From: an uncultured Gammaproteobacteria bacterium
Lineage (GTDB): Bacteria > Patescibacteriota > Patescibacteriia > Buchananbacterales > UBA6539
Reading direction: 5' to 3'
Assembly (NCBI GenBank): GCA_964470025.1
Contig: CAYXZR010000006.1
Coordinates: 1-35,912, forward strand
Length of the DNA stretch: 35,912 nucleotides
The notes beneath the pieces were generated by a model that did not search any database, had not been told where the DNA came from, and saw nothing but the letters and a program-made list of their open reading frames with translations. Below are positions 2,726 through 35,912 of the stretch, in pieces; positions within the stretch are counted from its first letter, which is position 1; each line of letters begins with the position of its first letter. The position numbers and the translations under genes were made by a program.

Positions 2726-4507
2726 TTAGTTATCCTCTAGCTCGACGTCATCACCTAGTTTGATATGTACATCTTTTAACTGTTGTTCATCAACTGTATT
2801 TGGTGCGCCCATCATCACATCTTCTGCTGCGCCATTCTTAGGAAATGCTATTACTTCACGGATACTTGGCTCGTTTTCCAGAAGCATCAATAATCTATCG
2901 ATTCCGGGAGCAAATCCTCCATGTGGTGGAGCGCCGTACTCAAATGCTCGAATCATGCCGCGGAATTTATCATCAACCTGCTCTTTGGTATACCCAGCGA
3001 TTTCAAATGCCTTATACATAATATCTGGGCGATGATTTCTGATTGCACCAGAAGACAACTCAAGTCCGTTTGCAATAATATCATACTGGTGTGCCAGAAT
3101 ATCCAGCGGTGCTTCCTTCTCTAGTGCTTCCATGCCACCTTTTGGCATTGAGAATGGGTTGTGAGAAAAAGTAACCTCACCAGTTCTTTCATCTTTTTCA
3201 TACATAGGGAAATCAACAATCCATGCCCATGCTACTACATCTTTGTCTTTTAGATTTAAAATGGTGCCAAGCTTCTCTCGCACTACTCCAAGTACTTTGT
3301 TTACAACTACTCGCTTATCAGCGCCGAAGAAAATAATATCACCCTTCTGCGCACCGGTTGTTTTAATAATGTACTCGATTTCTTCTTGAGATAAAAATTT
3401 CAAAATTGGTGATTTCAATTCTTCTTCAACAATAATGTATGCTAACCCACCTGCACCTGTATCCTGTGCGAGTTGTGTGAGCTCATCAATTTGACTACGA
3501 GTCATACCTGCTGCTTGTGGCGCGACAATTGCCTTGATAGTACTCTGTTCGTCACTCACTGCTTGTGCAAATACCTTAAACTCTGTTTTAGCAAGTCCTT
3601 CGGCAAGCTCAATCATTTCTATACCAAAACGAAGATCCGGACGATCGCTTCCATATTTTTCCATTGCTTCTTTATACGTAATTCGAGGGAAAGGTGTTTG
3701 TTGCACTTTTTTACCTGCAAATTCTTCTGTTAGTTTTACAAATAACGGCTCCATTACAGAAAACACATCTTCTGGTGTTTCTGCAAAAGCGATTTCTAGG
3801 TCGAGCTGGTAAAACTCACCTGGTGATCGATCGGCTCTTGGATCTTCATCACGAAAACATGGAGCAATTTGATAGTATCGAGGCACTCCGCCTACCATTA
3901 GCAGCTGCTTAAACTGCTGTGGGGCTTGTGGTAAGGCATAAAACTTACCTGGATGTAATCGTGACGGCACAATAAAGTCACGTGCACCTTCTGGAGATGA
4001 GCTAGTAAGTATTGGCGTATTGATTTCAATAAAGCCATTACTATGCATGTAGTCATGAATCTCTCTAATCATTTCATAACGACGTCGAAGCATACGCTGC
4101 ATTTTATCACGACGTAGATCTAGGTATCGATAACGTAACCGTAAATCCTCATTTACCTTTTCATCAAACTGCGCGATTTGAAAAGGAAGGACATTGCTCT
4201 GGTTTAACACTTCAAGCTCTTCAACAACAACTTCAACTGTCCCTGTTGGGATATTTGCATTAACTGTTTCTTTACTGCGCTCAACAACAGTGCCAGTTGC
4301 TTTCAGCACATATTCATCTCTTACCTTTTCTGCTACTTCAAATGCCCCAGTTACCTTGGGGTCAATTTGAAGCTGGACAATTCCACTGTGATCTCGAAGA
4401 TCGATAAAAATCAACCCGCCGTGATCACGCCGAGCATTAACCCACCCAGATACAGTTACTTTTTCGCTAATTTTAGATAAAATTTCTGAAGATAACGTTC
4501 GTTTCAT
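2726..4507 (-). CDS. aspS: aspartate--tRNA ligase
   Basis: Class II AspRS motifs ([20 protein letters not shown]) and full length. I prefer the start at MKRTLSS (ATG 4507); the track ORF extends to 4546 with an implausible hydrophobic prefix. Confidence 0.93.
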
Positions 4508-4579
4508 ACATGCAAGAATTATTAAAATAACAAACACATCATACAATATTATACCTCAAAAAGCAAGCAACTGAGCCAA

Positions 4580-10105: not shown

Positions 10106-10651
10106 TTACCCGGCTTTAGCTGCAGCTTTACCTGCCTTACGTCGAATAACTTCATCTACATATTTAATACCTTTACCCTTGTATGGCTCTGGTTTTCTAA
10201 ACCCACGAATTTCTGCTGCTACCTGACCAACCTGTTGCTTGCTAATACCGGTGATAGTAATTACGTTTTTCTCTGAGCTAATTTCAATACCGTCTGGTGC
10301 TTTAAATTCAATTGGGTGTGAGTATCCAAGACTTAGAACAAGTACTGACCCTTTCATATCTGCCTTGTACCCAACTCCGTTTACTTCAAACTTTTTTTCA
10401 AATCATTTTGTCACGCCCTCAACCATATTACTGATTAACTGTCGTGAAAGTCCCCATAGTGAGCGCTGTGTCTTGTCGTCTTGACTCTTGATAGTAAGCA
10501 CTACTTCGTTATCTGAAATAGCCACATCAACACGATTGTCAATTGCTTCTTGCAATTCACCTTTTGGGCCTTTAACGGTACAGATACTATCTTTTAGAGA
10601 TACTTCTACTCCGCTTGGGATACTGATTGGTTCTTTTCCGACTCGTGACAT
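10106..10651 (-). CDS. rplF: 50S ribosomal protein L6, single reading frame containing one in-frame TGA (10405-10403)
   Basis: Track ORFs 10403..10651 and 10106..10357 are in the same frame. The 45 nt between the TGA and the second ORF's ATG also read as L6 sequence ([15 protein letters not shown]). The TGA aligns with the Gly of GV(T/S)xGF in E. coli and B. subtilis L6. Confidence 0.9.
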
Positions 10652-19875: not shown

Positions 19876-20238
19876 CTACTCGATTGGCTCGAAGTAGTAG
19901 GTACCCTCTTCCTCGTCTGTGTTTTGCTGATTTTCGTCCTGATTTTCAACTACTTTTGGATCAGCCATTTCTGCTGGTTCAAACTGCTTACTTTTGTTTA
20001 ACACCGCACCAACTGACTGCCAAGAATCATCAATATCTGCTAGGTTTTCAGTAGTTTCTGGCACTTCCTCTGCAACAGGTACTTCATGGTGTGGCTGTGC
20101 TACGGCTCCTTCTAATAACACCTCATATTGCTCAAGTGAGACAACAACAAAGCCTTCATGCTGCTCTTTATCAACGATAATACATGGAGAGTCAGTTTTC
20201 TTGGCTAATTTAATTGCTTTTTCAACAATATGAGACAT
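19876..20238 (-). CDS. hypothetical protein with a Phd/YefM-like N-terminal region and acidic disordered C-terminus
   Basis: 120-aa ORF inserted between fusA and tuf. The N-terminal ~45 aa (SPCIIVDKEQHEGFVVVSLEQYEVLLE) resembles the antitoxin-type fold pattern. No adjacent toxin ORF is present. Confidence 0.5.
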   Translation of the reverse strand: MSHIVEKAIKLAKKTDSPCIIVDKEQHEGFVVVSLEQYEVLLEGAVAQPHHEVPVAEEVPETTENLADIDDSWQSVGAVLNKSKQFEPAEMADPKVVENQDENQQNTDEEEGTYYFEPIE

Positions 20239-24104: not shown

Positions 24105-24142
24105 ACTTTACGATAGTATCACGTTTATTATGATATTTCTAG

Positions 24143-24181: not shown

Positions 24182-24553
24182 TCACATGGTTTTAAAGCTA
24201 GGCCAGATTATTCTTTCACCTTTTGAGTTAAAAGTTATAGTCTTGCCCGAACTACCTGGAATTGTATCAAGATTAGAGTCGAAGTATATTTTGAGCATTC
24301 GCTTTGTTTCTTGATCAATTGCACCTGTTTCGGCAACACCTAGCTTTCTTTGAAGACGACACACTGCATTCTCGAGATCTGTATCGAAAATTGATGTATC
24401 CTGACAGCCTGCAAGAAAGCCCATGTGCCGACCAAGCCATACTGCAAGTAACGCACGCAGAAACACTACGGCATTTCCACTACTTCTCTGCTCTGGCTTA
24501 GTAGGATTACATGGAAGAAGTACTGGTGGAAACATCATCTGATCGTTATACAT
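24182..24553 (-). CDS. peptidoglycan-binding-domain (PG_binding_1-like) protein
   Basis: 123 aa with a pattern like SGNAVVFLRALL...DTDLENAVCRLQRKLGVAETGAIDQETKRML. It is the only CDS in the window that ends in TGA. Confidence 0.6.
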   Translation of the reverse strand: MYNDQMMFPPVLLPCNPTKPEQRSSGNAVVFLRALLAVWLGRHMGFLAGCQDTSIFDTDLENAVCRLQRKLGVAETGAIDQETKRMLKIYFDSNLDTIPGSSGKTITFNSKGERIIWPSFKTM

Positions 24554-26540: not shown

Positions 26541-26617
26541 TGGTCGGGCTGGCCGGACTTGAACCGGCGACCTCACGCACCCCATGCGTACGCGCTAGCC
26601 AACTGCGCTACAGCCCG
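26541..26617 (-). tRNA. tRNA-Pro (anticodon GGG), CCA encoded
   Basis: Hand-folded cloverleaf with anticodon loop AUGGGGU. It has C1:G72 and A73, as in bacterial tRNA-Pro. Confidence 0.9.
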
Positions 26618-28232: not shown

Positions 28233-28286
28233 CTATAGGTCAGTAAAGAAAAAGCTAAAGAAATAGTTAGAATGTTGTGCTTTCAT
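28233..28286 (-). CDS. Phe/Tyr-rich leader peptide MKAQHSNYFFSFFFTDL
   Basis: 17 codons, checked codon by codon. There are 5 Phe in 6 consecutive positions, preceded by Tyr, with a TAG stop at 28235-28233. Confidence 0.7.
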   Translation of the reverse strand: MKAQHSNYFFSFFFTDL

Positions 28287-28296
28287 ATCTATTTTG

Positions 28297-28325
28297 AGCT
28301 TATACCTCAGAGTATGATTTGTCAA
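28297..28325 (-). promoter_or_regulatory. promoter (TTGACA, then -10 TATAAG/TAAGCT)
   Basis: It abuts the leuA terminator T-run and sits ~10 nt upstream of the leader ATG. Confidence 0.45.
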
Positions 28326-28330
28326 GAAAA

Positions 28331-30794: not shown

Positions 30795-30805
30795 ACAATA
30801 TATTT

Positions 30806-30834
30806 AGCATATACCCGTTAAAAAGATGTGTCAA
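30806..30834 (-). promoter_or_regulatory. promoter (TTGACA-17-TATGCT)
   Basis: It abuts the cimA terminator T-run. Confidence 0.45.
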
Positions 30835-30861
30835 GAAAAAAGACCAAGTAACACTTGGTCT
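30835..30861 (-). terminator. intrinsic terminator after cimA
   Basis: Minus strand reads AGACCAAGT-GTT-ACTTGGTCT followed by TTTTTTC. Confidence 0.7.
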
Positions 30862-32409: not shown

Positions 32410-32584
32410 GTGCCTGCTCCTGTGGTAGTTTGTGAAAGATCAATTTGAAAAACAAGACAAACAAAAAATCCAGCTGGTGGCTGGACTCTCAAATCGTTTT
32501 GTTCAACGTTTACTAGAAAGCGGCCACCCGTGTAGGCTGGATAATAATGCTAATAATTGAAATGTTAGCGTATTGTGCTTTCAT
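32336..32584 (-). CDS. Ile-rich leader ORF MKAQYANISIISIIIQPTRVAG...; literal frame stays open for 82 codons
   Basis: ATG at 32584. There are 6 Ile in 8 positions. By manual translation the first in-frame stop is TGA at 32338-32336, inside cimA. A TAG-TAA pair (32514-32509) lies one frame off, at the position where a leader stop would be expected. This ORF is not in the supplied track, so it needs re-checking. Confidence 0.45.
32461..32484 (-). terminator. attenuator terminator in the cimA leader
   Basis: Minus strand reads TCCAGC-CACCA-GCTGGA followed by TTTTTTGTTGTC. Confidence 0.6.
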
Positions 32585-32590
32585 ATAATT

Positions 32591-32623: not shown

Positions 32624-32661
32624 AAAATAAAAAGCCCAATGAAGGTGGACCTACATTGGGC
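32624..32661 (-). terminator. intrinsic terminator closing the tRNA / structured-RNA unit
   Basis: Minus strand reads GCCCAATG-(12 nt)-CATTGGGC followed by TTTTTATTTT. Confidence 0.7.
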
Positions 32662-32701: not shown

Positions 32702-32783
32702 TGGTCGGGCTAGAAGGAATCGAACCTTCGACCATGTGATGCTAGACTGCATCACACCGCTCTACCGACTGAGCTATAGCCCG
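32702..32783 (-). tRNA. atypical tRNA (82 nt with CCA) with Pro-like acceptor and an 8-9 bp anticodon stem
   Basis: The acceptor (CGGGCTA/TAGCCCG, A73), D arm (GCTC-AGTCGGTA-GAGC) and T arm (GAAGG-TTCGATT-CCTTC) are normal. The anticodon arm is TGTGATGC-AGTCTA-GCATCACA. Confidence 0.6.
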
Positions 32784-32886: not shown

Positions 32887-32965
32887 AGGGGATGACAGGA
32901 GTCGAACCTGTGAGCTACTAAGCCACGTTGGCAAAGATACGCTCTAGCAATTAACTAACATCCCC
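32887..32965 (-). pseudogene. degenerate tRNA-Gly(GCC)-like element, no CCA
   Basis: The acceptor (GGGGATG/CATCCCC, U73), T arm (ACAGG-TTCGACT-CCTGT) and the loop heptamer TTGCCAA are all present, and that heptamer is identical to the one in the neighbouring tRNA-Gly. The anticodon and D stems do not pair, and the variable region is 11 nt. Confidence 0.5.
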
Positions 32966-33160: not shown

Positions 33161-33237
33161 TGGAGCTGCTGACGAGACTCGAACTCGCGACATCTTCCTT
33201 GGCAAGGAAGCGCTCTGACCAACTGAGCTACAGCAGC
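33161..33237 (-). tRNA. tRNA-Gly (anticodon GCC), CCA encoded
   Basis: Clean cloverleaf with loop UUGCCAA and U73. Confidence 0.9.
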
Positions 33238-33465: not shown

Positions 33466-33542
33466 TGGCACACGTGGCCGGATTCGAACCGACGACAAGC
33501 GCATTGAGTTTTGCGCTGCTCTACCAACTGAGCTACACGTGC
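33466..33542 (-). tRNA. atypical tRNA with an 8-nt anticodon loop (AAACUCAA), G73, CCA encoded
   Basis: GCACGTG-TA-GCTC-AGTTGGTA-GAGC-A-GCGCA-AAACTCAA-TGCGC-TTGTC-GTCGG-TTCGAAT-CCGGC-CACGTGT-G-CCA. All other arms are canonical. Confidence 0.6.
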
Positions 33543-33551
33543 ACTAAAGCT

Positions 33552-33627
33552 TGGAGGACGTGATAGGATTCGAACCTACGACCAATGACTCCCAAAGTCA
33601 CTGCTCTGCCATCTGAGCTACACGTCC
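33552..33627 (-). tRNA. tRNA-Pro (anticodon UGG), CCA encoded, with non-bacterial-type G1:C72/U73 acceptor
   Basis: Cloverleaf with loop UUUGGGA. The acceptor and D arm are near-identical to those of the adjacent 8-nt-loop tRNA. Confidence 0.8.
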
Positions 33628-33914: not shown

Positions 33915-33943
33915 TTTATATATTATTTTTTACATCGTGTCAA
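33915..33943 (-). promoter_or_regulatory. promoter (TTGACA-17-TATAAA) driving the tRNA / structured-RNA unit
   Basis: Consensus -35 box, 17-nt spacer and near-consensus -10 box. Confidence 0.55.
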
Positions 33944-35662: not shown

Positions 35663-35912
35663 TTATTGAGGATTTTTTGCCTGCTCAGGAGGTGCTGGCT
35701 TATTGTCTGGAGCTGGTACTTCCTGTGTTTCTTCAGGATACTCACAACTGTCATCATCTTGGGTAGCATCCGCGTTATAGTTAGTTGCCTCTTGGTCAGT
35801 ACAACCAAGGATTGGGTCTGGGGTTTCTTCAGGAGCAGGAGCAGGTGTTGGCGATTCTTCTTCAGGATACTCACAACTGTCATCATCTTGGGTAGCATCC
35901 GCGTTATAGTTA
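35663..35912 (-). CDS. 3' end of a secreted repeat protein (...GCTDQEATNYNADATQDDDSCEYPEE...), 5' end outside the window
   Basis: The frame is open from the window edge to TAA at 35665-35663. It holds two copies of NYNADATQDDDSCEYPEE 43 aa apart. Track ORF 35653..35898 is a different, low-complexity frame. Confidence 0.6.
   Translation of the reverse strand, partial: NYNADATQDDDSCEYPEEESPTPAPAPEETPDPILGCTDQEATNYNADATQDDDSCEYPEETQEVPAPDNKPAPPEQAKNPQ
35731..35783. repeat. 53-nt exact direct repeat, copy 1 (copy 2 at 35860-35912)
   Basis: Identical sequence cttcaggatactcacaactgtcatcatcttgggtagcatccgcgttatagtta, with a 129-nt period. Confidence 0.9.

Follow-up and report, generated by a model that had tools for sequence, protein, structure and literature searches.

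A Patescibacteria tRNA gene with a canonical body and an eight-nucleotide anticodon loop without U33: possibly a surplus duplicate of tRNA-Pro(UGG)

Background

Natural transfer RNAs (tRNAs) with enlarged anticodon loops are very rare. The suf tRNAs have informed the understanding of reading-frame maintenance, and the yeast mitochondrial tRNAThr1 showed a route by which a codon changes meaning. tRNA-X, the subject of this report, is a class-I tRNA gene of 77 nucleotides (nt) at 33466..33542 on the minus strand of a 35,912-nt stretch of contig CAYXZR010000006.1 (the window), which comes from an uncultured bacterium placed in the Buchananbacterales of the Patescibacteriota. It combines a canonical tRNA body with an 8-nt anticodon loop that lacks U33. 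With a probability of about one half, it arose by tandem duplication of the neighboring tRNA-Pro(UGG) and has since diverged, and is still made and folded while standing outside normal decoding, as a surplus or relic gene and not a dedicated suppressor. A survey of the literature found no described natural bacterial tRNA with a loop like that of tRNA-X.

The yeast mitochondrial tRNAThr1(UAG) is derived from tRNAHis and has the 8-nt loop UUUUAGGU (PMC3113583, PMC4267643). It is the best-studied natural triplet reader with an 8-nt loop, and it reads its triplet by loop positions 4-6, leaving two bases after (PMC3113583). tRNAThr1 and tRNA-X both have a natural 8-nt loop whose additional base precedes the anticodon, and both have a normal body although derived, in the case of tRNA-X probably, from a paralogue of another identity. 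The bases before the anticodon of tRNAThr1 still include uridines, its conservation extends over 10 yeast species, and it is paired with the reassignment of CUN to Thr and with a synthetase by which it is recognized, whereas tRNA-X has no U33 and no relative that could be found, and GAG in its genome is still Glu. The suf tRNAs (sufD; sufA6 and sufB2, both from tRNA-Pro; sufJ) share with tRNA-X the 8-nt loop and a link to the tRNA-Pro family (PMC4238358, bioRxiv 10.1101/2020.12.31.424971). They are laboratory mutants with one inserted base relative to the parent, in which U33 and the anticodon of the parent are retained; tRNA-X keeps neither, and no target site is evident for it.

Among bacteria that have reassigned UGA, Gracilibacteria and Absconditabacteria decode it with tRNA-Gly(UCA), and the family JAKLIH01 of the Patescibacteriota with tRNA(UCA) (PMC8629427, PMC13092985). 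These tRNAs are not known to depart from an ordinary 7-nt loop with U33 and with UCA at positions 34-36. tRNA-X resembles them in its phylum, in having UCA within the loop, and in lying in a window with an in-frame TGA where Gly is expected. The genomes of those bacteria have many in-frame UGAs and lack release factor 2, whereas here there is a single UGA and the UCA of the loop is in the wrong register. tRNA-X fails the defining tests of the suf family, the tRNAThr1 type and the UGA-decoding tRNAs.

Results

Structure of tRNA-X

ARAGORN reports five tRNA genes in the window, all on the minus strand, and names four of them. The unnamed one is tRNA-X, listed as a 77-nt 'tRNA-???' with anticodon (actc); its drawing is labelled tRNA-?(Ser|Glu)(actc). 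Over its full length it scores 52.7 bits (E=1e-8 for the window) with the Rfam tRNA model RF00005, whose gathering score is 29 bits, and the sole misfit is the anticodon loop, where Infernal places 8 nt and the model has 7. The first half of the RNA reads GCACGUG UA GCUC AGUUGGUA GAGC A GCGCA AAACUCAA UGCGC, and after the anticodon stem it continues UUGUC GUCGG UUCGAAU CCGGC CACGUGU G CCA. The CCA end is encoded, the acceptor stem closes with G1.U72, and the discriminator is G73. All 21 stem pairs are Watson-Crick or G-U, and the bases for tertiary contacts are all present (U8, A14, G18G19, G53 with its G53-C61 pair, T54, C56, A58 and C61). The body is that of a canonical elongator tRNA, with 7/4/5/5-base-pair (bp) stems and the conserved tertiary nucleotides, and the marks of a pseudogene (broken stems, lost conserved bases, a lost 3' end) are absent outside the anticodon loop. 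An earlier note on this DNA had described a tRNA here with an 8-nt loop, a canonical body and an encoded CCA, and ARAGORN, RF00005 and the predicted fold all agree with it.

The anticodon arm (33499..33516, minus strand) has a 5-bp stem, GCGCA/UGCGC, around the 8-nt loop 5'-AAACUCAA-3' (33504..33511, minus strand), both in the ARAGORN drawing and in the fold. A26 (33517) is able to pair with U44 (33498), which extends the anticodon stem to 6 bp. The cloverleaf is the minimum-free-energy fold, with 64% of the ensemble, and there the A26-U44 pair forms and the loop stays at 8 nt, as in the 6-bp alternative without a free nucleotide 26 that had been offered before. The loop is not the canonical one, which has 7 nt, U33 and a purine at position 37. 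Reading the sequence bears out the earlier statement that U33 is missing whichever register is used: position 33 is not U in either register, and the removal of any single A creates none.

The loop had been said to offer CUC when anchored from the 3' side and also to contain UCA. If the tRNAThr1 register (positions 4-6) is applied to the loop by analogy, tRNA-X would present CUC. UCA occupies loop positions 5-7 of 8, after AAAC and with one loop base 3' of it, and not positions 34-36; to present it, the A31-U39 pair must open, which breaks the stem. Because U33 is absent and the extra base lies 5' of the anticodon, a normal U-turn is not expected to form, and tRNA-X would then be at best a weak decoder. 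In the ribosomal A site, its 3'-stacked bases would present CUC, which reads GAG, and not UCA.

Relationship to tRNA-Pro(UGG)

The closest relative of tRNA-X within the window is tRNA-Pro(UGG) (33552..33627, minus strand), which has the 7-nt loop UUUGGGA, G1:C72 and U73 and lies 9 nt upstream, the gap given in the earlier note. The two are 81% identical outside the anticodon arm, while other tRNA pairs in the window are 64-72% identical, and they have the A26-U44 extension of the anticodon stem in common. Nine stem pairs differ between them, five on both sides and four on one, and none is broken. Since all nine stay paired, the differences suggest a duplication after which the copies diverged while selection maintained the fold, and together with the identity values they support the duplication and divergence proposed before. 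The 'near-identical' acceptor and D arm of that proposal was overstated: the D stem is identical (4/4), and the 5' acceptor strand (6/7) and the D loop (6/8) are not.

The departure of tRNA-X from tRNA-Pro(UGG) extends throughout the anticodon arm. The loops UUUGGGA and AAACUCAA have no anticodon base in common, and AAA replaces N32-U33. BLAST of tRNA-X against phage and E. coli tRNAs gives mixed best matches (Asp, Asn, Trp, Ile, Thr) at 72-82% and does not assign an isotype. A match to YrlA (Y RNA-like) runs from the 3' half of tRNA-Pro into the 5' half of tRNA-X; its 41.4 bits are below the gathering score of 69, and it was rejected, since the tRNA-like module of the YrlA model accounts for it.

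Codon meaning and reading frames

Thirty genes of the window were aligned to Buchananbacteria orthologues, and the residue of the relatives was tabulated for each codon. All sense codons are standard in this alignment, and no sense-codon reassignment is found in the 30 genes. GAG aligns with Glu at 100 of 180 sites (0.56), compared with 0.52 for GAA. The codon that a triplet reader would recognize through loop positions 4-6 has therefore not changed its meaning, as GAG is still Glu.

In-frame GAG is followed by U in 48 of 229 cases (21%), compared with 14% for U at this position overall, so this combination is enriched and not avoided, and the sites include genes for ribosomal proteins and highly expressed genes. 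A tRNA whose ACUC read GAGU efficiently would be harmful. No frameshift occurs in any of the 43 genes of the 36-kb window. tRNA-X has the 8-nt loop of a suf-type suppressor; it has neither U33 nor a parental anticodon with one base added, and the 36-kb window holds neither quadruplet sites that need a +1 shift nor in-frame avoidance of such sites. The earlier view of tRNA-X as a frameshift suppressor or other recoding tRNA is not upheld, since U33 is missing, nothing of UGG is kept, no gene is frameshifted and GAG-U is not avoided.

The in-frame TGA in rplF

rplF (10106-10651) contains an in-frame TGA at 10403..10405 on the minus strand, and the earlier note was right that it is real. All compared uL6 proteins have Gly at this site, shown residue by residue for the five best PDB matches, and the Buchananbacteria relatives have GGT or GGC. 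The reading frame runs on cleanly past the TGA, and the flanking sequence is well conserved. It is the sole in-frame TGA in 43 genes (10,235 codons). It could fit a UGA-to-Gly code, or it could be a single G-to-T change in GGA by error or polymorphism. TGA is the stop codon of 1 of the 43 genes in the window and of 9 of 115 genes in the same region of standard-code relatives; the probability of at most one TGA stop in 43 is about 0.14 (own binomial sum), so the scarcity is not significant. The relatives are equally poor in TGA stops, and genome-wide UGA reassignment gains no evidence from it.

The only gene that apparently ends in TGA is the one at 24182-24553 (minus strand), which encodes a peptidoglycan-binding-domain protein. 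Read-through would add 18 residues, up to a TAA at 24128.

The identity elements of tRNA-Gly are U73, G1:C72, C2:G71 and G3:C70. The tRNA-Gly(GCC) in the window has U73, G1:C72, C2:G71 and U3:A70, and tRNA-X has G73, G1.U72, C2:G71 and A3:U70. tRNA-X thus lacks a Gly acceptor end, and it also lacks the loop of a UGA decoder (UCA at 34-36 of a 7-nt loop, with U33 and A37). A link between tRNA-X and the rplF TGA, raised earlier as speculation, is not supported: the UCA is in the wrong register, and the link is weakened further because tRNA-X lies in a segment of foreign composition (see below).

The tRNA cluster

tRNA-X belongs to a non-coding stretch of 1.3 kb in which five tRNA-like genes are clustered, two of them normal-looking and three unusual. 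In the order of transcription these are tRNA-Pro(UGG), tRNA-X, tRNA-Gly(GCC), a decayed Gly-like copy and a gene called 'Cys(GCA)'. The middle arm is abnormal in three of the five, and the pattern is that of a normal gene followed by an aberrant relative. tRNA-Gly(GCC) (33161..33237, minus strand) is canonical, called by ARAGORN and scoring 71.3 bits with the Rfam tRNA model. The degenerate sequence at 32887..32965 (minus strand) scores 27.3 bits, just below the gathering score of 29. It retains intact acceptor and T arms and contains a Gly-like loop, UUGCCAA; its D arm is decayed, its middle arm is over-long and a CCA is lacking. This sequence probably descends from the neighboring tRNA-Gly(GCC) as a copy that is now dead.

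The gene that ARAGORN calls 'Cys(GCA)' (32702..32783, minus strand) has a 13-nt insert in the loop relative to the Rfam model. It folds with a 9-bp anticodon helix, GUGUGAUGC/GCAUCACAU, and a 6-nt loop, AGUCUA, and has the acceptor strand CGGGCUA and A73. Outside the anticodon arm it is 79% identical to tRNA-Pro(GGG), which it resembles in acceptor and A73; it does not look like a tRNA-Cys, for which U73 would be expected. Because a decayed Gly-like copy and a hairpin-armed Pro(GGG)-like copy stand in the same cluster, odd anticodon arms are a local pattern and not a single engineered-looking change.

A promoter-like TTGACA-17 nt-TATAAA (33915..33943, minus strand) lies upstream of the cluster. 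It was read by eye, since the rule of the promoter scan demanded T as the last base of the second hexamer and the site was for that reason not listed. A terminator-like hairpin with a T run (32632..32652, minus strand) lies 50 nt past the last tRNA of the cluster.

The tRNA arrays of mobile elements, plasmids and phages (PMC4758250, PMC8421152) are likewise dense clusters in which normal and aberrant copies are mixed, and in the tRNA array of Anabaena three of 26 members were judged to be pseudogenes (PMC8421152). The dense cluster described here also stands in a segment of foreign composition. It differs from the arrays in that they are defined by at least 20 tRNA genes, compared with five here, and in that no integrase or phage gene was found near the cluster, unlike the arrays on mobile elements.

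Genome context

The window carries the str/S10/spc ribosomal operons, from which L30 is missing within the window, followed by secY-adk-map-ruvX-recO-aspS-scpA-scpB-dacA. Its gene order matches contigs of Buchananbacteria and Patescibacteria. For SecY, the identity to proteins that carry the name Candidatus Buchananbacteria or Patescibacteria is 72-76%, and none in the protein collection is closer.

The composition breaks exactly at tRNA-Pro(GGG) (26541..26617, minus strand; C1:G72, A73; placed by ARAGORN and codon usage). The G+C content at third codon positions (GC3) is 0.28-0.36 in the genes to the left of it and 0.39-0.69 in those to the right (26.6-35.9 kb). CCC, TCC, TCG and AGG are almost unused to the left of the break and occur to the right of it, where the genes are aroG, leuA, a small open reading frame (ORF), cimA, an S9-peptidase-like gene and a repeat ORF. 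Of these, aroG, leuA and cimA are amino-acid biosynthesis genes, which are unusual for Patescibacteria. The best relatives of cimA are 59% identical, are not Patescibacteria by their given names, and have no tRNAs near them. From its sequence, the right-hand segment would be an island gained by horizontal transfer, or else the product of an assembly join at the tRNA gene. A prophage origin was rejected, as there are no PHROG matches, and so was an att-type repeat of the tRNA 3' end flanking the island, where generic tRNA similarity alone was found.

tRNA-Pro(UGG) has G1:C72 and U73, whereas tRNA-Pro(GGG) has the bacterial-type C1:G72 and A73, an odd combination for one prolyl-tRNA synthetase. 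The differing acceptor ends of the two proline tRNAs may reflect different origins.

The aspartyl-tRNA synthetase of the window (2726-4546, minus strand) has 606 amino acids (aa), belongs to the bacterial type that includes a GAD domain, and matches NCBIfam aspartate--tRNA ligase with 801 bits. In the Buchananbacteria relatives, the same syntenic place is taken by a gene for about 476 aa without the GAD domain, and the window gene looks like a synthetase replacement. A 120-aa ORF at 19876-20238 (minus strand) lies between fusA and tuf, a junction that normally holds no gene, and has no Pfam, NCBIfam or PHROG match. Similar blocks of the repeat families D6 and D8 occur at 28266-28330 and at 30799-30839 / 32564-32586, upstream of leuA and cimA. 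Family D6 contains TTGACA on the coding strand, and the blocks are probably a shared promoter or leader of the two synthase genes. At 35709-35912, inside the ORF at the right edge, a 75-nt block recurs at a spacing of 129 nt, the copies being 88% identical; this ORF, with a GC3 of 0.69, encodes a repetitive protein whose function is not known.

Conservation

A search of 185,579 species genomes with the loop pattern AAACTCAA plus the T arm gave 16 matches, none of them with a tRNA at the match, as expected by chance. A standard D arm with NNNCTCAA at 8-nt spacing gave three matches in the metagenomes of the Joint Genome Institute, all of them unrelated tRNAs with 8-nt loops. The relaxed pattern gave 18 matches in IMG/VR, and tRNAs are present at four of the matched loci, none with the loop of tRNA-X; the two that lie at the match itself, a Glu(CUC) (L029) and a Ser(ACU) (L035), both have 7-nt loops by sequence reading. 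In the viral scan, the exact 18-mer of the anticodon arm occurs in one place, which has no tRNA call and by eye lies inside a coding sequence. The 519-aa protein encoded upstream of the cluster has no homologue among 5.8 billion proteins. At the Buchananbacteria loci reached through SecY homologues, the ribosomal synteny is conserved, rplF is intact and there is no tRNA, and these loci end before the region of the cluster. tRNA-X is a singleton in the searched data. This is not in itself a sign of lack of function, because the nearest sequenced relative is distant.

Two other sets of odd tRNA genes came up in these searches. A 537-kb metagenome contig (BNJV01003070.1; L017, 2159-2233) carries a glycine-like tRNA with the 8-nt loop UUCCUCAA, for which ARAGORN gives cctc, and with the acceptor elements G1:C72, C2:G71, G3:C70 and U73. 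It looks like a tRNA-Gly(CCC) with an inserted U, which would make it a natural candidate of the suf-like kind. Two independent metagenome contigs (L018, 135-332; L019, 31-228) carry two odd tRNA-like genes in tandem, each inside an acceptor-stem extension of about 15 bp in very AT-rich DNA. ARAGORN assigns gcgt to the first, and the second has the 8-nt loop AUACUCAA, closed by a G.G mismatch, with seven of eight loop bases in common with tRNA-X.

Discussion

The history of tRNA-X that fits best would start with a tandem duplication of tRNA-Pro(UGG), after which the body was retained and the anticodon arm diverged to an 8-nt loop without U33. tRNA-X is probably co-transcribed with tRNA-Pro(UGG), tRNA-Gly(GCC) and the two aberrant genes, on a transcript that would span from the promoter near 33.94 kb to the terminator near 32.64 kb, and it is probably processed to a CCA-ended, L-shaped RNA. 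It would persist as a surplus or relic paralogue in a cluster of tRNAs that duplicates and decays within a segment of foreign composition.

Several points weigh against this account. The body shows no decay in its 21 pairs, tertiary bases or CCA, and because all nine pair differences keep pairing, the fold appears to have been under selection until recently, or to be so still. A long-dead pseudogene would show mismatches, as the sequence at 32887-32965 does, and tRNA-X does not, being unlike an ordinary pseudogene. Patescibacteria have small genomes with few spare tRNA genes, which argues for a retained use. The paralogy with tRNA-Pro(UGG), moreover, rests on 77 nt.

A retained use might lie outside routine decoding, in a job that needs the acceptor/T-arm half only and leaves the anticodon loop free to drift. 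tRNA-X might be an aminoacyl donor in a non-ribosomal reaction, an RNA that regulates or acts as a decoy (being insensitive, for instance, to anticodon nucleases), or a processing signal. Such a role would account for acceptor, D and T arms and a CCA that are perfectly kept next to an anticodon arm that alone is odd, as it is in the 'Cys'-called neighbor, and for the preserved pairing in all differences from tRNA-Pro(UGG); non-canonical roles of array tRNAs have also been discussed (PMC8421152). It is nevertheless rather unlikely here, as no Fem/MprF-type transferase, cyclodipeptide synthase, toxin or nuclease was found nearby and no conserved relatives of tRNA-X were found. Known cell-wall tRNAs weaken G18G19 and the T stem, and tRNA-X retains G18G19 and a normal T stem. 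A role in decoding at a few sites elsewhere in the genome, as a natural +1 frameshift or quadruplet decoder (ACUC on GAGU, or CUC plus an extra base), is more doubtful still. The 8-nt loop is the hallmark of sufD, sufA6, sufB2, sufJ and the engineered quadruplet tRNAs, ARAGORN gives a 4-base anticodon, and tRNA-X is a relative of tRNA-Pro as are sufA6 and sufB2 (bioRxiv 10.1101/2020.12.31.424971). It keeps neither U33 nor any remnant of the parental anticodon, however, and the 43 unshifted genes and the enriched in-frame GAG-U speak against an efficient reader of GAGU.

That tRNA-X decodes UGA as Gly, rescuing the rplF TGA and marking a young reassignment of UGA, is very improbable. The loop does contain UCA, the TGA stands at an invariant Gly in a clean frame, one gene in 43 ends in TGA, and C2:G71 is common to tRNA-X and the tRNA-Gly(GCC) of the window. 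The UCA, however, is followed by a single loop base and can be presented only if A31-U39 opens; G73, G1.U72 and A3:U70 are not Gly identity elements, and the tRNA-Gly of the window has U73. There is one TGA in 10,235 codons, the scarcity of TGA stops is not significant, the gene at 24182-24553 apparently ends in TGA, and the segment with tRNA-X differs in composition from that with rplF. A young UGA reassignment in the lineage is possible, and tRNA-X is a most unlikely decoder for it. There is equally little to favor the fuller version, an early UGA-to-Gly reassignment in a Buchananbacteria-like Patescibacterium, independent of that in Gracilibacteria and Absconditabacteria, with tRNA-X decoding through a non-standard loop geometry; if it were true, the rplF TGA would be one of the first captured codons. 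An artefact, whether a sequencing or assembly indel or a chimeric consensus, is just as improbable a source of the odd loop. The contig is from a metagenome, the extra base lies within a run of four A's (A31 plus AAA), the change of composition at a tRNA gene could mark where an assembly was joined, and the rplF TGA could be a base error. Yet the loop minus one A, AACUCAA, still has no U33, and one indel cannot restore a normal tRNA. There is no frameshift in 36 kb and 30 genes are colinear with their relatives, so indel accuracy is high, and the other aberrant tRNAs differ by many bases and not by one.

Conclusions

On present evidence tRNA-X is a curiosity and not a demonstrated recoding system. 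The location of tRNA-X near an in-frame UGA in the gene of an essential ribosomal protein makes the whole genome worth a check of its code. With its flawless body, 8-nt loop and lack of U33, tRNA-X may be a snapshot of a duplicated tRNA gene leaving the decoding pool. If instead it is charged and used, it would represent a new decoding loop geometry, relevant to the evolution of the genetic code and to the engineering of quadruplet and suppressor tRNAs.

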